From contig OX597831.1 of NCBI GenBank assembly GCA_951406725.2, positions 77,438,001 to 77,502,000 on the forward strand: DNA of 64,000 nt. The letters are read 5' to 3'. Shown here piece after piece: positions 2,672 through 64,000 of the stretch. The DNA is from Octopus vulgaris. Its lineage: Eukaryota. Position numbers and translations under genes: made by a program. Position 1 is the first letter of the stretch, and each line of letters begins with the position of its first letter. Below the pieces are notes generated by a model, which was not told where the DNA came from, made no database searches, and saw only the letters and a list, made by a program, of their open reading frames with translations.

Positions 2672-3886
2672 CACTCACATGACAAAAGTAATCATTAAAA
2701 TTTATTTAAATCTGAAATTATACGTTCAAATTATTCATTTATTGTTATAATGTGAATATTTAATATTTAGTAGACATGCCCTTTGCACTTTTCAATGCAT
2801 GGACCCTATTAGGCATGTTACTGATCAGAGGACGAATATTCTCCGGTGGAATTTCTGGTCAATTTTCGGGCAGTAATCTCAAAAGATTTGGCTTTGTAGC
2901 TGTTTTCTTGTTCTTTTTATGAAGTGTCCTGTCCGTTATCTTCCAGAGGTGTTCAATAGGGTTCATATCTGCTGACTGGTTTGGCCATAGAAGCATTTTA
3001 ATGCCATTCTCATCCAACAAATCTTGGGTCATTTTAGCTATGTGACAAGGAGCCCCATCTCCTACAAATAAAGAGTCTTCTTTAATCATTTCACCAATGG
3101 AAAAGATTGGAAGGAATTCTTCCTGAAATCTGGACCTATATTTATCTGAGTTTATGTTTCCTTCACACTCCACCAGCTCTGATCAATCATTGCTCTAAAT
3201 TGTTCCCCAGACCATCACAGAATAGCTGCCTGGCTGCAATCTTTTCACATCAAATTCTTGATCACAGAGTCTCCAGACCCGCATTCGACCACTGTTAGGA
3301 AATACAGCAAATCTGGACTCATCAGAGAATATGACAGTGTCCCAAAATGCTAGTGGTCTCTCCACCATCTCACTGACCCAAACTTTTCTCCGCTTGATGT
3401 TGACTGTTTCAAGAAGTGGCTTCCTTCTTGATGCTCTGCCAAATTTGTGGAGATACCTGGCAGCTGTTTTGGGGCTGACATCAACTTGTTCTGCTATATC
3501 AGAGGCGTTGCAACGAGGATTATCCGCGACACTTCTCTTGACAAAGAGAAGGGTCTTGTCAGAAGGCTCTGGTTGATCTGGGTGAGATGATACAGACTCT
3601 TTTCGCTCTCTGGTGAATTGCACAGACAATCTATTAACTGTAGAAAGCGGTAACCCAAGGTTTTCTGCGATTTTACGCTGACTATGTCTACCTTCAGAAT
3701 GACCCACAATACAGCCTCTTTGAAATTCAGACAGTTCCAAGGCTTCTTTTGTACGTGGCATGATTAACCAGTCATATATAGAACCTGAAACAGAAAAATA
3801 TCAATTCGTAAAAAAGTATAAACCTTTACAAGTTAGAATAAACAGAAAACGATGTTCTATGGGGTGTCTATTTACTTTTGTTATGT

Positions 3887-9639: not shown

Positions 9640-10690
9640 AATTTTAGTGGGGTAGGGATAAGTTGATGCATTCGACTCCAGTACGTCACTGGTATTTTTT
9701 CGTATCGACTCCGAAAAGCTGAAAGACAACAATGACCTCGATTGGATCGGAACTCAGAACGTAATGTGTCGGAAATAATGGTTGAAAATGTTGGCACAAG
9801 AGCAGTAATTTTTGAGGGGAGGGGTAAGTTGATCACATTTACCTCACTACTTCTCTGGCACTTTATTTTATTGTTCTCGAAAGGATAAAATCCAGAGTCA
9901 GCTCGGGCGGCATTTGAACTAAGAACGTAAAGACGAGCGAAATGCCGCTAAGCATTTTGCCCTGCGTCTTAACGGTTCGGCCAGCTCGCCTCCTTAAGAG
10001 TCGGAAATAATAATTCTTTCAACAAGGCCAGTAATCTTAGTGGAGGAGGGTAAGCTGGTACATTCGACCTCACTATTTGATTAATATGTTAGTCTCCCAA
10101 GGCGGCGGCGAGCTGACAGAAGCGTTAGCGCGCCGAGCAAAATGCGTAGCCGTATTTCGTTTACCGTTACGTTCTGAGTGCCGAGGTCGACTTTGCCTTT
10201 CATCCTTTCGGGGGTCAATTAAATAAGTACCAGTTACGCACTGGGGTCGAGCCCCTTGTGGGTAGTAAAGAAATAGGTATTTCGTCTGCCGTTACATTCT
10301 GAGTTCAAATTCCGCCGAGGTCGACTTTGCCTTTCATCCTTTCAGGGTCGATAAATTAAGTACCAGTTGAGTACTGGATTGATCTAATCGACTGACCCCT
10401 TCCCCAAAAAAGCTGGCAGAAACGTTAGCATGCCGGGCGAAATGCTTAGCGGTATATCGTCTGCCGTTACATTCTGTGTTCAAATTCCGCCAAGGTCGAC
10501 TTTGCCTTTCATCCCTTCAGGGTCGATAAATTAAGTACCAGTTACGTACTGGGGTCGATATAATCGACTGGCCCCCTACCCCCAAATTTCGAGCCTTGTG
10601 TCTAGAGTAGAAAAGAATATTTTATTCCATCGATCCCAAACGGACGAAAGGCAAAGTCGACCATGGCATCATTTGAACTTAGAACATGGT
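9640..10690. mobile_element. Cluster of nested SINE-C copies and fragments in both orientations
   Basis: Repeated gccgaggtcgactttgcctttcatcctttcggggtcgataaattaagtaccag at ~10180, 10313, 10487 and in reverse near 9700, 9880, 10630. Confidence 0.85.
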
Positions 10691-34174: not shown

Positions 34175-34279
34175 TTCTTTTATTCTTTTATTTGTGTGAA
34201 GGTAGGAATCGGGGACGTAAACACACCAGCATCGGTTGTCAAACGACGTTGGGGGGACAAACATGGACACACAAATATA

Positions 34280-34328
<49 letters not shown>

Positions 34329-34447
34329 GACGGGGATCCCTCAGTTTCCGCCTACCAAATCCACTCAGAAGGCTTTGGTCAGCCCGAAGCTACAGTAGAA
34401 GACACTTGCCCGAACCCGGAACCATGTGGTTGGTAAGAAAGCTACTT
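34175..34447 (-). mobile_element. SINE-B body (3' part of a split copy; its head is at 36644-36674)
   Basis: Ends at ggaaccatgtggttggtaagaaagctactt; resumes at agctacttaccacacaaccacccatgcgcct. Confidence 0.9.
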
Positions 34448-36643
34448 TATTTTATTAAATTTGCCATAAAGGCAGTACATAGAGTAAGGTAGCTTGCAGG
34501 CTGGACACGGACATTAATGAGATGAATGATAATGATGGGAGAAGACAGAAAGCGCCCGCTGACCCTCTTCTTCCCTATAACATTGTTCTTCCACAACCAT
34601 ACATTTGAGATATTAAACCTCTTACAATATTTCGATATTTCCAATTTATTTGGACTAAAAAGTCCATTACAAATAAAAACTATTTAAACTCACACTGGAG
34701 GCAATAAACCTCTTATACTAAATCACCCTTTCACCATCCCCGATTAACTCTCTTGCGGTCTACAGGCCATCCCGCACCCAGAAGTTGGGGCCCCACAAGA
34801 ACATTCTGTAATCCTCCTTAACGGAGTCCGTTATATGGACAAATTCCCTTCTTTCCAGTACCAGAGCAGCCACCTGCGGAGGCCACTCTGGACTGTCAAT
34901 ACAATCCGAGTACATCTCCACAAAGTTCTCAATAGCCCCTCCCTTGCGATAGAAGAACACAAATTCCTCTCTTTCACCGGGAGGGCCCTCAACTCGGTCG
35001 CTCGGTTGCTCGCTCGGAGGCACCATTTCCTCCAGCGAGGCCACGGGACATGCTGGCAGTACATCACAAACGGCCGGTACTCTCCCGCTTTTCTTTTTCT
35101 TCTTCCCCTACCCTCCGGTGGCACATATCCCACCGAAGGGGTTACGGGACATACCGCCAGTACACCAGCAACCGTCGGCAATGCCCCGTTTTTCTTCTTC
35201 CTCCTCTTTTTTCCTTTACGACGGGAGGGTGGAGTTCATCCGACCTGTCCGGAGGTCACTCCTTCCATCCCGTCGCCGCAGGATCCATCGGTGGGCAACC
35301 ATTGTTGCCCACCTTCTTTGTTTTTTTCCTTTTGTATTTGAGGAGGTTACCTCCACCTCGACTTGCTCCCTCTCTCCCTCCAATTGGAGAGCAGGGGGCT
35401 CCTCAACAATTAACTGTTCCAGGACCTTTGCCTGGTCATTACGACAATTTTTCTTTACGAGGTCCGGAAGCCGCGGGCGCCCGAGCCCGGTAGAGCCGAC
35501 CGCGAGTGCAGATCTCGGTGGTAGTAGCAAATATTAGTAATACCAGATCATCGGCTGATTGGATCCATAGGGTCAAAATTGTTTTTGACCCAACCCAATC
35601 AGCCGCAGGCAGAATTTTTAAATGCACAAGCTTGGCGGTGCTGCTACCCAGCCCCCAACGGATAGAATCCTCTATTCATTCGGGCTCCATAGCGGGTGGC
35701 AACCCACTCACATAAGCTCTTGTCAGTTTTCGCCCACCGTATGTGGGGAGAAACAAAATTTTCTTCCTTTTTATAGGTTGGCTTACGAATTTTTGCGTCT
35801 CCGCAGGGGTGTCGAAAAGCATGCACACAGTTGCGTACTTCGAACCCCTAAGGATAAACCTAAAAGTTGGAAGGAACCCTGCCAACTCATTTTCAATATC
35901 ATTGCGAGAGAAAACCGTAATGGTGTCGGGAGACCTACAATAGGTTCTCAACACCACGGTCCTCTCGTTGAAATACTTCAATCACTTTTCTGCTGGCTTA
36001 ATTCCAAAGTTTTCTTTGCCATTTTTATGGAAGAAGAGAAAAGGCCAAATTGTTCGCAAACAATAGGTCCCAAAAACGTTCAACTGAAGTCAATAATAAA
36101 GTCAATGATAGTAAAAACAAAAAAAGGACGGAAAAACAGAAGAGAGAAGAAAGAAGGAAGGAAAACAGTACACAATGATGGCAGGAAGACAGTTCGAATG
36201 GCACAATTTTGCTACTCTCGTAATCCACGTGAAAGTTAATAATCCGTTGCAGCACAAAATTTTCTACTTTCATCCAACTTTTATGGCCGCCTCCATAAAC
36301 CCAAAGTAGATCCAATGGTAAATCCAATGGTAAATCCAGGACACGAACACAGTCAGAAGAAGACAATTTTTACAATAACTTTTCCGGCGGTATACGCCTC
36401 CCAAAAAATACAATTCTCACTACACAGTGAGTCTTTTCGCACAACCACAGGCAGACAAATGTCTGGAACCCAGTGGAGACCCTTTTTCGACACAAATTAT
36501 TACATACAAACAACAGACCCCACTGAGCTCCCTAAAAAACAAACACCTGACCTGTAGTTGTGCTTCAATTTTTCAATTATTCAACGTCGACCGACTTGAC
36601 TCCCAAGCGCAAAAAAAACACGCACTCTCCTGTGAAGTAAGGG
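34448..36643 (-). mobile_element. ORF1-only non-LTR-type retroelement, copy 1 (complete, ~2.2 kb), inserted in the SINE-B head
   Basis: 8-bp TSD agctactt at 34440-34447 and 36644-36651; ~620-bp 5' UTR, decayed ORF1, ~310-bp 3' UTR ending aataaaataa; no RT or endonuclease. Confidence 0.85.
34760..36022 (-). pseudogene. Decayed ORF1/gag-like protein (RRM-like + zinc-knuckle remnant + basic linker + C-terminal domain)
   Basis: ATG at 36022; segments ERTVVLRTY..RGSKYATV..FLPTYGGRKLTRAYVSGLPP, PDLVKKNC, KVGNNGCPP, CIDSPEWPPQVAALV; a TGA at 35676-35678 aligns with W in the 46177 homologue; several frameshifts. Confidence 0.8.
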
Positions 36644-36675
36644 AGCTACTTACCACACAACCACCCATGCGCCTA

Positions 36676-37017
36676 AATAGCCTCGGCCCGACCGAAGCCT
36701 TGTGAGTAGACTTGGTAGACGGAAACAGATAAAAGCCCGTCGTATATATATATATATCTGTGTGTTGTGTGTGTGTGTGTGTGTGTGTATGTGTGTGTAT
36801 GCGTATGTGTGTGCATATGTTTGTCCCCCTACTATCGCGTGGCAACAGATGCTGGTGTGTTTACGTCCCCGTCCCTTAGCGGTTCGGCAAAACTTAACGA
36901 TAGACTAAGTACTACGCTTACAAAGAATAAGTCCTGGGGTCCATTTGTTCAACTAAAGGTAGTGCTCCAACATGGCCGCCGTCAAATGACTGAAACAAGT
37001 AAAAGAATAAAAGAAAA

Positions 37018-37894: not shown

Positions 37895-38500
37895 CTATAT
37901 AGGCACAGGAAAAATGCAGGATGGAAGAGTACAGAAAAAATTATTACGTGTGAAAATATAAAAATATATGAAATAATAAAAGGTATAATGAGATAAAAAA
38001 AACTTTTTTGGACATAATATAGAAAGCAAGTTCTGTCTGTTTTCTTGAGGGGACCAAAAACGTAACAAAAATTTTGTCACATCTGGGCATGACCCGAAAA
38101 GTTCTGTCCTTGAGTTTAGACATGTAGTAGGGTCTAAGCTGCTTTTCCAGATAAGCCATCTCTCCATGTCGCATAGACCGCACTTTCCGCTGCCGTTGGT
38201 GTAGGGCTTACATTTGGCCAAAATCTTCCAATGGATGTTGTAATTGACACCTTTAACTTTTAATGACCAAATATGATTAGATACTTTTGTCGCTTTTCTT
38301 TTGTTCCAGTGCCTAAAACTCAAGGTGTGGTTATTGAACCTGTCCTTGAAATTATCCTCTGTAAGGCCCACGTATTTCTTCGTCGAAACGGTGTCTGTAG
38401 TGGTTATAGAGTCCACGGTAGCTTCACAGATGATGGTCTCGGGCATGCAAGCTCCATTTAGCGGGCACAATTTTTTATTCCTGCAAGAACAGCTGTTTTC
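37895..38500 (-). pseudogene. PLE GIY-YIG endonuclease domain
   Basis: IICEATV...YVGLTE..FKDRFNNH..SF...HIW...CGLCDME...LNSRTE. Confidence 0.88.
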
Positions 38501-38641
38501 TTGTGGTTTTTGTGTGTTATGTGTGATTACATTTTTTAAATTGGTAGTTGAACTAAAACTAATTTTAAAATTGTGTTTATTGAAGAGTTTCCTATAAGTA
38601 TGGTTAACTAGAAATGTCTATCTATCAGTGTTAAGAAATAT

Positions 38642-39660
38642 TTACCTATATTGAAGGTCACCTCGGGTGAGTAAGGGGGGAAACCAGATGATCTTCCTAT
38701 TTCTATTTTTCCTCTTCTCTACTGTTGGGCTAGTAACAGGTGTATATTTTATTTTTTCGCTAAAACCACTATCTTTTAAAGCCTTATAAACTGGGGCAAC
38801 GCTATTAAAAATGTCCTTATCGGAGGAGAGGCTAAAAATTTTCTTACTAATATTTTTAACTAAATTTTTGAATACTATAAGGGGATGGCATGAGCCTACA
38901 TTAATATAACTAAGTCTATCATTGGGCTTCCTATAAGGCTTATAAATATTCTTATTAAGATCTAAGGAAACGTCTAGGAAATTGACAACCGTCAGGTTAG
39001 TATCTATAGTTATTCTAAGTCCGAAGTATTTCATTAATTGAAATTGGATAATAATCTTCCTAAAACGATCTTGTGCTGGTCCATTTGTATTAGCTGTTAA
39101 GGCGAGGGCATCATCTTTGTAGATGGCGAAATGTACGTCAGGGAATGTCTTACCTAAGGTATCTAAGAGAAAAAATCCAATAAGATCGCAAATGCCTGCC
39201 CCATCATATGACCCCATGCTCACATCGAAAGCGCCTTCTGTGTCAGTGTTTTTGACCCACTTTGCATTCTCACTGAAAAGTAAGGTCTTTCTAGCATGGA
39301 AGATTATGTCCTTATCATTTGTACTAATTTCTATGAAGTCGCTAGCGAAGACGAGGGCTTTATCTAGCAGTTCTTTAGAGATAGAGGCATAAAAATCAAC
39401 AATATCGAATTGTGTAAACCTCGCTTTTTTCTTATTCTTAATGGCTTTAAACCAGTCTACGACTTCTATACTATTGGACCAGTGTACTAGCCTAGTAGCG
39501 GTCTTGATTTTTGCATTTATTTTATCTAAAATTTCTTTACTAATAATCCCAAGTTCTGACTTAGCTGGGTTGATAAGCCTACATTTAGGGTTGGAAAGGA
39601 AGTTCTCTTTGTGGTCTTTAATTGTAATAAAGGCCTCTTTTTGGGGAAGGACTTCTATTT
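38642..39660 (-). pseudogene. PLE reverse transcriptase domain
   Basis: The frame of ORF 38642-39223 extends upstream through IEVLPQKEAFITIKDHKENFLSNPKCRLINPAKSELG. Confidence 0.88.
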
Positions 39661-39796
39661 TTTTTATCTAATTTAAGTTTAGCGGCGATAACGCTAGATT
39701 CTTTATTAATTTCATTATAGGTCTGTGGCCTAGCCTTAGTGTAATTATTAATGATGCTTACCACACAGCCACTCCTACGCCTAGTACAATATATAT

Positions 39797-40495
39797 GATT
39801 GATTGATTGATTGATTGATTCTAGTTTCAGCTTATGAGCTGTGGCCATGCTGGGGCACCGCCATTTGGTGTTGCTACTTGGTTTCACTTCACGAAAGCTT
39901 TCTAGCAACTGCCATTTGGTGCATGACAGAGTTCGATGCAGCTGCCCTCATCTGCCCCTCCTGCCGTGAAGTTGGTTCATCTGGGACACCTGACAGGAAG
40001 AGATCCAGCTTCATTTTAAAGACATCTGCATCCACCCCATGCAGGTCTCTCAGATTCTTCGGGAGGATATTGAAGAGCTGTGGGCCTCGGAAGCCCAGGC
40101 TATCACAGAATCTTGTCCTACATCTTGATGGCAAGTTTGGAGTCCTAGGCACCACGCAGTGGCGCCCAGTTCTGGCATTTGCGTAACTCTCGATGCCAAA
40201 GTTCAGGACACGTCCCTCCAGGATCTTCCAGATGTATATTATGGCATATCTTTCCCGCCTACGCTCCAGGGAATATAGTTTTAATCTCTTGAGTCTTTCC
40301 CAGTAGCTTACATTCTGCATAGAGGCTATCTTCTTCGTGTAGCTACGTTGGATCGCCTCGAGCTCTGTGATCAACTTGACACTGGATGGTGACCATAACT
40401 GAGAGCAGTAGTCAAAGTGGCTTAGGACAAGTGTCCTCCAGAGGACCATCATGGTTTCTTGTTCTCTTGTTCTAAAGGTTCTGAGGATCCATCCG
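39797..40495 (-). mobile_element. 3' end of a CR1/L2-group LINE with an (AATC)n tail
   Basis: ORF 39889-40452: LVLSHFDYCSQLWSP...LEAIQR..TK...YWERLKRLKLYSLERRRER...FKMKLD; short 3' UTR followed by tandem aatc. Confidence 0.9.
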
Positions 40496-40507
40496 TTTTT
40501 TTTAAGT

Positions 40508-40890
40508 GGAGGCGCAATGGCCCAGTGGTTAGGGCAGCGGACTCGCGGTCGTAGGATCGCGGTTTCGATTCCCAGACCGGGCGTTGTGAGTGTTTATTGA
40601 GCGAAAACACCTAAAGCTCCACGAGGCCCCAGCAGGGGATGGTGGTGATCCCTGCTGTACTCTTTCACCACAACTCTCTCTCTCTCTTACTTCCTGTTTC
40701 TGTTGTACCTGTATTTCAAGGGGCCGGCCTTGTCACTCTCTGTGTCACGCTGAATCTCCCCTAGAACTACGTTAAGGGTACACGTGTCTGTGGAGTGCTC
40801 AGCCACTTACACGTTAATTTCACGAGCAGGCTGTTCCGTTGATTCGGATCAACCGGAACCCTCGTCGTCGGAACCGACGGAGTGCTTCCC
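40508..40890 (+). mobile_element. SINE-A, full length
   Basis: Near-identical to 56029-56412 and 56635-57016; A-box tggcccagtggttagg, B-box-like gtttcgattcc. Confidence 0.93.
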
Positions 40891-45912: not shown

Positions 45913-46445
45913 ATGCCTTCGATGGAAGAAAGTCCAAAAATGAATTTTGCTGCAGCCGTCGGCGGGCGCGAACTCATTAAAATTAAAATGGAAGAAATAC
46001 AAACCTATTTCGGATTGATCACCGACAAAAACGGTGAATCTAGGATAACACCACCAAACGAAATAAAAAATTAAATTAAAGAAAAGACTATTGTCTATAA
46101 AGTATACAATGTACAAAAAAAAAAAAGATTTGAACACCTGGAGGAAAGCACCATCGAAAAGTGCCTTGGTGCGACTATGAAAGATATCAAGTATCTAACC
46201 AGAGGCGGTAAGTTCGCCACAATAGAAGCAAGGTTCGAGTCAACGGAGCGTGCAAGGGAGTACACGACTCGAACCTTGCAAAGTGGAAATATTTTCTTTT
46301 TACCTTTATATCTGGGACGAAGGACGTCCCGGATAAAAATTAAAAATGTCCCCCCAGAAGTAGAGGTAGGCTGGATTGTAGCCACACTTCTATACAAGAG
46401 GAAGGACAAGATACTATTGATCAAAATTGCAAGAGACGGGCCTAC
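45913..46445 (+). pseudogene. N-terminal ORF1 (RRM-like) fragment homologous to the 34760-36022 ORF1
   Basis: MPSMEESPKMNFAAAVGG...*IKEKTIVYKVY...YLTRGGKFATIEARFES...FLPLYLGRRTSRIKIKNVPP...W; one stop at 46072-46074. Confidence 0.75.
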
Positions 46446-54078: not shown

Positions 54079-55574
54079 CATACACAGACACACACACACA
54101 TACATACAGATATATATATATGTTTGCGTGCATCACCAAGTGTATATATACCCATTCTCATATGTATGCGTATAAACGTATGCATTAAGTAGCATCGTCT
54201 CGTGTGTATTCTGTCTCGCGTACACCAATGAATCCACTCTCAAGGCTATGGTCGGCCCGAGGCTATAGTAGACGACACTTGCCTGTGGTGCCATGCAGAG
54301 AGACTGAACCCGGAACCATATGGTTGCGAAGCAAGTTTCTTACCACACAGACACTCCTTGATGCAACGACAAAGATATTTATGCTCGCTTTAATGCGTTC
54401 CAGTACACTAAAATGAAAGGCATCCGCTGCGGGATTTTGTCTCGACGTAAAAGTTTTTCATTGAGCAATTTGCTGTCCTTTGGTTTTTCTGCCAGCTCTT
54501 TACCTTTCCAAATTTTACTTTTCATTGTTGCGGTGATCGATAATAACATACAACTGAAGGGGGTCGATGTTACCGACTATACCGACTCCTTAATTTTCTG
54601 TCCTTGTGCTGATATTAGATGTATTTCGTTACACCGATGGCTATACTGTTAAAGCTCCATAATCTGAGGCGTGATTCAACGAACTTTGGACAAACTATTC
54701 TGTCTCAGAACTCAACGAGTTGGTCATCAGATATCTGGGTTTTCGTTATCTAATGAATCGTTATATCGTTTTTTTTCTTTCTTTCACACAAATCCTAAGT
54801 GATTTCATCTGTTTGTTGAAATTCAAACAACGACAGCGTGGAAGGCACATATTAGCCATACAAAAACACACAGAAACTGCTAATTTCGCTCCACTACCTC
54901 AAAGCAGTGAAATCGCGGTCGTTATCAGATCGCAGATGGGGCAACGAAGATCTTCACACCAAATGGCAAACGTTTAAATTAATAGTCTTTGTGTATTTCT
55001 GAATGGCTGATATGTGTCTTCCACGCTACAAATCCGTTATAATTTGAGCAAAATTTAGCTACTATATGTATATTGGTTGTCCTGGTAACGTTTTACTGCT
55101 GCCATGACAACCAACGTTATTTCTTCTTTAAGTATAAATTTGAAAGTTGAGTTGAAATGTCAAGGAGGAATATATAAATAGCATGTGTAACACTTCCCTA
55201 GTTATGCTACCGTCTGCAGAGCCTGATTTGGTCGAGTCGGTGTAGTCTGAGCCTGCAGCTTTGAATTAGCAAAATGTAAAATCAGACATACTCCAACTGT
55301 GACGTCCTCATTTTTTTTAAAAGATGCTCGGTTGTGATTTAAATGCAATGAGGTTACCATTTCATATAACCAAATGCATGAGATTTCCTTAATTATATTA
55401 GCACCGACACTGCCTGATTTGATTGTTTCGTTATGGTTTGATTCAGGTCAGCTTTGATTCAATAAACATCGAATCAAAAGCGCTCCAGCCCTGCCCACCT
55501 TGTCTTTTCTAAAACATCATGTTGTGATTTGAGGAAAATATGGTTTCTTGTTGGTATCGAATGTAACCAACATA

Positions 55575-55990
55575 TATTCTTTATTTTCTTTTAATCTTTT
55601 ACTGGTTTCAGTCATTTGACTGCAGCTATGCTGGAGCACCGCCTTTAGTCGAGCAAATCGATCCCGGGACTTATTCTTTGTAAGCCCAGTACTTATTCTA
55701 TCGGTCTTTTTTGCCGAACCGCTAAGTGACGGGGACGTAAACACACCAGCATCGATTGTCAAGCAATGCTAGGGGGACAATCACAGACACACAAACACAC
55801 ACACACATACATATATATACATATATACGACGGGCTTCTTTCAGTTTCCGCCTACCAAATCCACTCACAAGGCATTGGTCGACCCGGGGCTATAGCAGAA
55901 GACACTTGCCCAAGATGCCACGCAGTGGGACTGAACCCGGAACCATGTGATTGGTTAGCAAGCTACTTACCACACAGCCACTCCTGCACC
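55575..55990 (-). mobile_element. SINE-B, full length, empty target site (single agctactt at 55961-55968)
   Basis: Close to the apparent consensus. Confidence 0.93.
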
Positions 55991-57411: not shown

Positions 57412-57825
57412 TCCTTTACTCTTTTACTTGTTTCAGTCATTTGACTGCGGCCATGCAGGAGCACCGCCTTTAATCCAACAAATCCACCCCAGCACTTATT
57501 CTGTATAAGCCTAGTACTTATTCTGGCGATCTCTTTTGCCAAACCGCTAAATGACGGGGACGTAAACACACCAGCATCGGTTGTCAAGCAATGTTGGGGG
57601 ACAAACACAGACACACAAACATATACACACACACACATACATAAATACATACATACACACATACATATATATATATATATATAAATACGATGGGCTTCTT
57701 TCAGTTTTCGTCCACCAAATCCACTCACAAGGCTTTGGTCGGCCCGAGGTGCCACGCAGTGGGACTGAACCTAGGACCATGTGGTTGGTAAGCAAGCTAC
57801 TTACCACACAGCCACTCCTGCGCCT
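57412..57825 (-). mobile_element. SINE-B, empty target site (single agctactt at 57795-57802)
   Basis: gtggttggtaagcaagctacttaccacacagccactcctgcgcct. Confidence 0.92.
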
Positions 57826-62644: not shown

Positions 62645-62649
62645 TATAT

Positions 62650-62865
62650 ATTCTTTTTATTCTTTTACTTGTTTCAGTCATTTGACTGCGGCCATGCTGG
62701 GGCACCGCCTTTAGTGGAGCAAATCGACCGCAGGACTTATTCTTTGTTAGCCTAGTACTTATTCTATCGGTCTCACTTTAGCCGAACGCTCTGTTACGGT
62801 GACGTAAGCACACCACCATCAGTTATCAAGCGATGTTGGAGGGACAAAAGCAGACACACAAACAG

Positions 62866-62921
<56 letters not shown>

Positions 62922-63064
62922 GACGGGCTTCTTTCAGTTTCTATTTACAAAAATTCACCCACAAGGCATTGGTCGGCCCGAGGCTATAGTAGAAGACACT
63001 TGCCCAAGGTGCCACACAGTGGGACTGAAACCGGAACCCTGTGGTTGACAAACAAGAGCTACTT
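62650..63064 (-). mobile_element. SINE-B body interrupted at agctactt (63057-63064)
   Basis: Complete tail and body; the head is displaced by an insertion. Confidence 0.9.
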
Positions 63065-64000
63065 TATTTCATTAAGATTTGCCATAAAGGCATTACAAAG
63101 AGTAGCTTGCTGGTTGGACATATACATTGATGAGGTGAATGATGAAACAAGGATGATATTGATGAGAGAAGGCAGAAAACGCCCACCGATTTTCTGCTTC
63201 TCTAAAACATTGTTCATTTTTTTCCATCAAAAACGACAATTATTGAACTTAATAGTCCATTACAAATATATATAATAAATTATTCAATACACAGACAATC
63301 TATAAGATCAGTCCTCCTCATCGGAGCCCCCAAGCAAATGACACGCCGCCTGCAGGAAAGCCTGCATCGGTAGGTCGGGCCCCGGAAAGAGGAAAGCAAA
63401 ATCTTCCTTATTACAGGTCACCATGACCTCGAACAGCTTCTTCTGACTCACGACGTCCGCAGCCAGCTGCGGAGGCCAGTCTGGACAGTCTATACAGACC
63501 GAGTCCAATCGTTCTCGGCCTGGAAGACCGTCCAAGCACTTCGCGACAGGCCCTTCCCTGAGATAGAAAACGACGGGTTTCACGTCCTCCTTACGGGGAG
63601 GGGCCTCAGCACACTCTGTCAGTGGTACAATTCCCACTGACAGAGCCTCTCGCTCCGGTGGCAAACCTTCCACCAGAGGGGCATCGGATTCAGTCGGCGG
63701 CACAGCGTTATCCGCCGACCGTCTCTCGTTTCTCTTCCTTCTCTTTCTCCTACTTACGGGTGCGGGAGTCGGATCCTCCACTGGCACACCCGGGGGAGGG
63801 TCCTCCTTTTCTCCTGCAACCTGCGTGTCTGTTGGTGAGCAACTATTGTTGCTCACCTTTCTTTTTCTTCTCGTTGAGGCCGATGCCTCAACGACCTCCG
63901 CTGTTTCTCCCTGCAATGGGAGAGCGTAGGACACCTTCACCTTTCCCTGCTCCAGGACCTTACCACGGCTCCGGGGCAAGTCCTTCTTAATGTGGCCTGA
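63065..64000 (-). mobile_element. ORF1-only retroelement, copy 2 (runs off the window)
   Basis: 3' UTR aligns with 34448-34680 (tttgccataaaggca, gtagcttgc, cagaaa.cgccc, aacattgttc, agtccattacaaata); same junction with SINE-B. Confidence 0.88.
63308..64000 (-). CDS. ORF1/gag-like protein, C-terminal part (open to the window edge)
   Basis: About 230 open codons: SGHIKKDLP (zinc-knuckle-like end), KVLEQ, KVSNNSCSP, basic RRKRRKR, VFYLREG...CIDCPDWPPQLAADV...KEDFAFLFPGP, matching copy 1. Confidence 0.7.
   Translation of the reverse strand, partial: SGHIKKDLPRSRGKVLEQGKVKVSYALPLQGETAEVVEASASTRRKRKVSNNSCSPTDTQVAGEKEDPPPGVPVEDPTPAPVSRRKRRKRNERRSADNAVPPTESDAPLVEGLPPEREALSVGIVPLTECAEAPPRKEDVKPVVFYLREGPVAKCLDGLPGRERLDSVCIDCPDWPPQLAADVVSQKKLFEVMVTCNKEDFAFLFPGPDLPMQAFLQAACHLLGGSDEED

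Follow-up and report, generated by a model that had tools for sequence, protein, structure and literature searches.

An ORF1-only retroelement family of Octopus vulgaris targets a single base in an abundant tRNA-like SINE and probably depends on a LINE with the same target

The window (the whole 64,000-nt stretch of Octopus vulgaris DNA that was analyzed) contains a 2,196-bp insert on the minus strand (34448-36643, copy 1) that splits a tRNA-like SINE, SINE-B, just 3′ of its A box and is flanked by an 8-bp duplication (Table 1). The 8-mer, AGCTACTT, occurs at 34440, 36644, 55961, 57795, and 63057 and at no further position in the 64,000-nt window: twice around the insert, once in each uninterrupted SINE copy, and once at the 3′ junction of a second insert (copy 2). 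A first-pass annotation of this DNA had described the split SINE with its duplication (8-mer at 34440 and 36644), the single 8-mer of the uninterrupted copies (55961 and 57795), and a second, diverged relative joined to another SINE at the same base and in the same orientation (8-mer at 63057), and all of this was borne out. The host SINE is approximately 420 nt long, short, highly repeated, noncoding, and dispersed, and it is represented by 22 BLAST pieces in the window. No ORF2 homology was detected in the window, in agreement with the initial description of both inserts as lacking ORF2 and its reverse transcriptase (RT). Three other statements needed amendment. The distance from the ORF1 stop to an A-rich end had been given as ∼240 to 310 bp, which fits the 312 and 243 nt measured for copies 1 and 2, but the end is AAATA, and copy 1 terminates in it without poly(A). 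The site had been placed between A-box-like and B-box-like motifs; it does lie just 3′ of the A box, which differs by one base in the SINE hosting copy 1, but most of the B box of that SINE is gone by deletion. The element had been called protein coding, which applies to the intact 425-aa ORF of copy 2 but not to the broken ORF of copy 1. A 5′-truncated SINE-B copy (36677-37017, plus strand) stands head to head with the SINE hosting copy 1. Elsewhere in the window we noted a 3′-truncated ORF1 fragment of another L1/Tx1-group family, off the SINE site and at 32 to 42% to autonomous ORF1s (45914-46440, plus strand), and, by eye, minus-strand segments that we take to be the C-terminal part of another LINE ORF2 (39889-40593), two open frames with the look of a Penelope-type RT and then a GIY-YIG-like endonuclease (37895-39667), and a Tc1/mariner-like transposase fragment (3195-3800).

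Table 1. Positions of the two inserts, their host SINEs, and the uninterrupted SINE-B copies in the window.
Feature	Positions	Strand	Basis or remarks
Body and tail of the SINE hosting copy 1	34175..34439	-	B box largely deleted; central (TA)n
Target-site duplication, 3′ copy	34440..34447	-	First A completes AATAAA across the junction
Copy 1 3′ UTR, 312 nt, AAATA end	34448..34759	-	Last ∼35 nt common with the autonomous partner
Copy 1 ORF1, decayed	34760..36022	-	Stops at 35984 and 35678; frame changes
Copy 1 ORF1, predicted parts	34760..36022	-	Two RRM-like domains, zinc knuckle, low-complexity linker, C-terminal α/β domain; fold from intact relative
Copy 1 5′ UTR, 621 nt	36023..36643	-	First 7-8 nt resemble the target continuation; mimic inferred from family
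Target-site duplication, 5′ copy, 8 bp	36644..36651	-	8-mer search
SINE-B 5′ head hosting copy 1, A-box-like motif	36652..36673	-	5′ boundary from loose ends; tRNA-Lys alignment
Uninterrupted SINE-B copy	55571..55990	-	Empty target at 55961-55968
Uninterrupted SINE-B copy	57412..57824	-	Empty target at 57795-57802
SINE hosting copy 2: 3′ duplication (63057-63064) and body	62647..63064	-	8-mer search; alignment
Copy 2, 3′ part	63065..64000	-	ORF1 residues 196-425; stop at 63308; 243-nt 3′ UTR

When the sequence was extended beyond 64000, the second 8-mer of copy 2 was found at 65348, behind a worn, degenerate SINE head. The full element is 2,283 bp long, reaches 65347 in continued coordinates (contig position 77503347), and carries its intact 425-aa ORF (P0001) without ORF2; the 2,283 bp include a nested 228-nt SINE in the 5′ UTR. 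Copies 1 and 2 are 70% identical over 1,867 aligned columns, compared with 84% for their SINE tails, as anticipated by the earlier remark that the inserts differ more than their host SINEs do. The outer flanks of the two loci, which a segmental duplication would have made alike, are unrelated. The nested 228-nt SINE (L031:3017-3244; ends also at 10275 and 43451 in the window) has a tail that matches the 3′ end of a different LINE family, to which the top zf-RVT loci (L092-L107) belong, and ∼15 of 59 examined tail ends adjoin the inside of its own head; on sequence grounds, this SINE and that LINE family are a lead to a second target-specific LINE/SINE system. Just upstream of copy 2, beyond the window (L031:4100-4850), visual inspection showed a long inverted repeat that spans several hundred bases.

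The 2.8-Gb genome was searched with an element-only sequence pattern, and the matches defined 754 family 3′ ends. Exact AAGWAGCT directly follows 531 of them; the chance of this 8-mer, which has one twofold position, is ∼3 in 100,000, and reversed control patterns gave 0. Among the first 30 of the 754 ends by position, all 30 have SINE sequence behind them, 28 in exact register, so the flanks are not random. Exact element-SINE junctions number 782 genome-wide versus 0 for the control. With the 3′ end of copy 1 as the query, 20 of the 29 other best loci adjoin the SINE at the same base. Nine near-identical matches among those 20 were counted as one event because they derive from one segmental duplication (outer flanks in common for 7 of 9 checked), which leaves 12 of 21 events at the SINE base and 9 outside the SINE. 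When the 5′ end of copy 1 was used, a SINE head preceded 27 of the 29 best matches. The nine non-SINE loci comprise four off-target copies with their own 8- to 16-bp duplications, at sites that start with AAGTA or ATGTA and have no SINE around them, one copy in an ATGT microsatellite, and four that are unexplained. Judged from sequence, insertion of the family at one fixed base of an abundant SINE is confirmed. The first-pass annotation had proposed that most copies would adjoin the same SINE base with unrelated outer flanks, which holds, with 531 of 754 ends at the target 8-mer, but it missed the minority of off-target insertions, and its figure of ∼8 bp for the duplications fits copy 1 but not the range of 7 to 16 bp across the family.

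The target was also correctly described at the outset as very abundant: the genome holds at least 69,401 + 6,486 empty sites (exact 28-mer matches), so about 1% of sites are occupied. When the SINE head was aligned to the tRNA genes of the genome, a comparison set of only 30 loci that are mostly Lys by reading, the best score was to a Lys type (55.5 versus a shuffle maximum of 46; reached by 0 of 300 shuffles), and neither ARAGORN nor Rfam gave a tRNA match to the head. By this alignment, the cut falls immediately after the D-loop GGT, at the A-box edge. Among the matches listed, an old subfamily (81.5% pairwise) occupies the AAGA SINE variant in 8 of 8 cases and a young subfamily (96%) the AAGT variant in 39 of 39; AAGA accounts for just 8.5% of the exact sites, and divergence is similar in the two SINE variants (81% versus 83%). 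The split of the subfamilies by target variant possibly reflects a shift in specificity, or timing.

Almost all copies have a SINE head before them and a SINE body behind, an arrangement that would also arise if head, ORF1, and tail moved as one composite unit and the junction were inherited by descent rather than targeted. Young copies are 98 to 99% alike in their last 280 nt. The host SINE tails behind young copies of the autonomous partner LINE described below are 95% alike, with 22 of 28 pairs lower than the inserts (eight copies, one with a deleted SINE having been dropped), and those behind young ORF1-only copies are 90% alike (five copies), with 10 of 10 pairs lower. Thus, the tails have diverged further than the young inserts, and they belong to different SINE variants. 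Several 5′-truncated copies (L201, L168, L241, and L239) retain the SINE head and are joined straight to it; the duplications of truncated copies measure 7 to 11 bp, and one of 15 shows microhomology. In addition, the off-target copies have duplications of their own, and the chains of elements described below lack SINE heads and tails between their units, whose order varies from chain to chain. The diverged tails, the truncated copies, and the off-target duplications lead us to reject composite movement as extremely improbable and indicate that the site is recognized by its sequence.

None of the best 30 ORF1 matches genome-wide has an ORF2 behind ORF1. Young ORF1-only subfamilies are >99% alike across 2.2 kb and possess their own 5′ and 3′ UTRs. 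In the tree, 12 intact ORF1s group together as a single clade (100/100) on a long branch, and the ORF1-only protein is no nearer to the partner ORF1 (25% identity) than to the ORF1s of nontargeting families (24 to 31%). The median dN/dS is 0.18 in the N-terminal half (65 of 66 pairs computable), 0.56 in the linker, and 0.72 in the C-terminal domain, and dS exceeds 1 between ORF1-only subfamilies. On the basis of these comparisons, the ORF1-only lineage is old, separate from the partner ORF1, and under purifying selection. The copies might instead have arisen by chance internal deletion within the autonomous LINE or by segmental duplication: some short copies do have internal deletions (L155 and L209), the nine near-identical matches come from one duplicated segment, and runs of identical units in the chains could include unequal crossing-over. 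This explanation is scarcely credible for a lineage whose ORF1 forms a clade of its own, with a dN/dS of 0.18 and synonymous distances above 1 between subfamilies, whose best matches carry ORF2 in 0 of 30 cases, and whose two copies in the window have unrelated flanks; segmental duplication appears from the sequences to account for the one set of nine matches only. The possibility, raised at the start, that full-length members routinely contain ORF2 is likewise at odds with the 0 of 30 and with the selected clade.

The structural model of P0001 (mean pLDDT 59; 70 to 90 in the folded parts) comprises two α/β domains, a knuckle, a disordered linker, and a C-terminal α/β domain. Foldseek matched it to tandem-RRM proteins (E about 1e-4) and to Atlas ZCCHC3-like and CCHC clusters. 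A zf-CCHC domain was found in 18 of 23 aligned ORF1s; P0001 alone gave no Pfam match and has lost the last knuckle cysteine. The ORF1 product is therefore predicted, from the model, to be an RNA-binding protein with two RRMs and a zinc knuckle. A single-sequence homologue search returned one protein, one relative is annotated as a host gene in O. sinensis, and a profile search returned 154 relatives, only one of them close; the named homologues are octopod (Octopus and Argonauta). Contigs from sequencing runs guessed to be RNA cover the element and show neither its ends nor its strand, and in contigs from runs of two further organisms (B and C) the SINE head is connected to positions in the interior of the element, an indirect sign of targeting in other species. 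The ORF1-only family of the first-pass annotation is confirmed as a lineage, but a second such lineage had been missed (L140:5275-6498 and L182:1200-2312). It is 27% identical to P0001 and 33 to 39% to the partner ORF1, groups with the autonomous ORF1s apart from the main clade, and its L140 copy lies in the C10 chain with the same junctions. We also observed deleted forms of ∼100 nt (L155/L221 and L209), with the 5′ end joined to the 3′ end, between the SINE A and B boxes; as a speculation, these might still permit pol III transcription and seed a composite SINE.

Upstream of the first 30 of the 782 exact junctions lay the family ORF1 in 18 cases, the end of an ORF2 in 6, and no coding match in 6. 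Longer elements with a similar 3′ end and an APE-RT ORF2, which had been suggested as the autonomous partner, were indeed found: L192, intact and 5,455 bp long, lies at the same base with the SINE head on one side and the SINE body on the other, and it has an ORF1 of 467 aa (P0004) and an ORF2 of 1,133 aa (P0003). P0003 contains the Pfam domains Exo_endo_phos (5e-12), RVT_1 (1e-27), and zf-RVT (1e-8), and its nearest solved relative is human L1 ORF2p (E 8e-67); P0004 has a zf-CCHC hit (E 4e-4) that falls 0.1 bit below the cut-off. From this architecture, the partner likely belongs to the Tx1 clade. The presence of 89 partner copies with an identical 45-nt end indicates recent activity. Over the last 60 nt, partner copies, which were chosen by junction, match ORF1-only copies at 70 to 85%, with ∼35 nt in common, and a similar tail occurs in another octopus LINE family and in a second SINE; given the shortness of the shared sequence and these similar tails, another LINE could be the mobilizer. 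The junction motif was absent from the best 30 zf-RVT loci, all of them other LINE families with other 3′ ends; one of these, L102, ends one base from the target. Two tandem arrays of full-length autonomous LINEs, with a period of ∼5.4 kb, were seen besides: one of a non-SINE family (C2:73040500-73070499; L126-L128) and, as judged by 3′ end spacing, one of the partner family (C9:2664555-2675473).

In full-length copies, bases 9 to 16 of the 5′ junction track the element subfamily and not the host 3′ copy (seen in L198, L199, L086, L280, L288, L289, L291, C5, and C1b). These bases are therefore encoded by the element, which starts with a target mimic, and the true SINE duplication is about 8 to 11 bp; a reading of the repeats as 13- to 15-bp duplications was ruled out on the same grounds. 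Since the mimic restores a 15- to 17-bp target, each full-length insertion rebuilds the site. Stacked elements are found often: among 30 junctions taken in order of position, 7 (4 arrays among 26 loci) continue into another element and not into the SINE body, compared with ∼1% expected from occupancy. The C10 chain holds nine units of at least four subfamilies (17 kb) in one SINE, the C5 chain seven units (14.2 kb), and the C1a chain seven ORF1-only units and one autonomous unit. The chains reuse rebuilt sites that lie at a distance from any B box, and young ORF1-only and young partner copies occur in common arrays. Age concordance in mixed chains gave a p of 0.6 at six loci. One co-mobilized A-B dimer was considered as the source of the stacks and was not supported: the stacked units of one young subfamily do not make up a clade, the seven stacked B units being scattered among 14 solo ones (few informative sites). 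AATAAA spans 29 of 30 junctions, and poly(A) is not copied. The first-pass description of the architecture was right about the junctions but missed the target mimic and the stacked arrays.

We interpret copy 1 as a decayed member of an old ORF1-only non-LTR family that is copied in trans by a LINE of the L1/Tx1 group inserting at the same site, and we assign this reading a probability of about 0.84. The L1 endonuclease cuts at TT/A. The APE endonuclease of the partner would nick the bottom strand at CTACTT/ACCAC. Read-through of the element RNA into the target is proposed because the first A of the target alone completes AATAAA; such RNA could pair with the freed ...CTACTT-3′ end and prime reverse transcription, which would yield a precise junction without a tail, and a variable top-strand cut would produce the duplication. 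ORF1p may package its own RNA and pass it to the ORF2p of the partner. The 5′ mimic would restore the full target, and chains would grow by re-insertion at rebuilt sites, by jumping of the RT between RNAs, or by both. Alternatively, the same family could be mobilized by a different or extinct LINE or be targeted by a protein route in which ORF1p contacts pol III factors on the SINE, instead of through sequence recognition by the endonuclease, as for TRE5-A, whose ORF1 binds TFIIIB (PMC5911963, in the part available). Consistent with that alternative, only ∼35 nt are common with the partner, related tails occur in another family, and ORF1 is under selection although it is unable to act enzymatically. 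We nevertheless consider it improbable: off-target copies occupy AAGTA-like sequence outside any SINE, the sites reused in chains are far from a B box, no ORF2 elements other than the partner and its relatives were found at the site, and young ORF1-only and partner copies share arrays. Beyond trans-mobilization by the same-site LINE, the elements might form a guild on the SINE A-box edge, made up of a single autonomous LINE lineage, two or more independent ORF1-only lineages, and short deleted forms. The guild would use a self-renewing target, with a mimic of the site at the start of each element and a poly(A) signal completed by the site at its end, so that matching target ends on the transcripts would let the RT chain several different RNAs into one insertion, and it would have switched target variant as the SINE evolved; this broader picture is tentative, and we hold it to be rather doubtful as a whole.

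Known Tx1-clade LINEs target U2, microsatellites, Tx1D, Mariner, Harbinger, and LTR elements, with Xenopus Tx1 in the Tx1D transposon, Keno in U2, Kibi and Koshi in microsatellites, and crocodilian Tx1-Mar in Mariner-N4_AMi with SINEU passengers (PMC4494074; LINE target classes are also given in PMC4640811; both as far as the available sections go). The available text of PMC4494074 takes >20% of copies flanked by one repeat type as the mark of target specificity; for the ORF1-only-type ends the corresponding values are 531 of 754, and 30 of 30 in SINE sequence. The octopus elements resemble these systems in pairing an APE-RT LINE at a fixed site of a multicopy element with nonautonomous passengers at the same target. 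The targets covered in those sections are DNA transposons, LTR elements, snRNA/5S genes, satellites, and microsatellites, whereas the octopus target is a SINE head; their passengers are noncoding SINEs, whereas the octopus passengers are protein coding and have a target mimic and mixed chains, neither of which appears in the accessible part of PMC4494074. HAL1 encodes ORF1 only (PMC5753468, in part) and is, like the octopus family, nonautonomous, and such ORF1p-only elements arose more than once, with two lineages in octopus. HAL1 differs as a mammalian L1 derivative for which the available part of PMC5753468 gives no site specificity; the octopus family has an RRM-RRM-knuckle ORF1, a fixed target, and no poly(A) tail. 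The octopus family works like HAL1 but is not a HAL1 member.

HeT-A is a Jockey-type element. Drosophila HeT-A, with TART and TAHRE, is similar in being Gag/ORF1-only, needing an autonomous partner, and forming mixed, head-to-tail arrays of one orientation (PMC5537684, available part); however, HeT-A adds to chromosome ends and serves the host, whereas the octopus family has tens of thousands of SINE sites, dispersed in the genome, as targets for internal insertion with duplications. Non-LTR RTs, that of R2 among them, are documented to jump between templates and to give head-to-tail tandem products, and R2 and the R2/R1 SIDEs offer a parallel of site-specific nonautonomous derivatives; SIDEs differ in being noncoding and targeting rDNA, with a restriction-like endonuclease in R2 (PMC11371274 and PMC3414825, in the portions available). 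Dada and Dictyostelium TRE5-A also use the A-box region of tRNA genes or its vicinity, but Dada is a DNA transposon that occupies genuine tRNA genes and TRE5-A inserts 44 to 54 bp upstream via pol III factors, and the available portions give no SINE target for either (PMC8869645, PMC3706591, and PMC5911963). The O. vulgaris repeat annotation lists 80 L1-Tx1 families, 13 of them recently active, with no target analysis in the part available (PMC13282606). The accessible parts of PMC8967140 and PMC4758252 contain nothing on targets, and that of PMC5035012 nothing relevant. Our literature search, which lay outside Repbase, Dfam, subscription journals, and the PMC13282606 library, found no SINE-targeting LINE with ORF1-only passengers. 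Each ingredient is known, and the combination of a SINE target, protein-coding passengers, a self-renewing site, and mixed chains appears to be undescribed.

These results add SINEs to the targets of sequence-specific LINEs and show parasitism in three nested layers, with dated insertions in the hundreds. The intact, recently active APE-type LINE with its short, sharp target is a substrate for studies of how an endonuclease reads DNA and for RNA-templated insertion tools. For octopus genomics, the inserts and chains will confuse both repeat libraries and gene models. Finally, an ORF1 that is under purifying selection without an ORF2, and is only 25% identical to that of its partner, provides a natural test of why nonautonomous elements retain ORF1.
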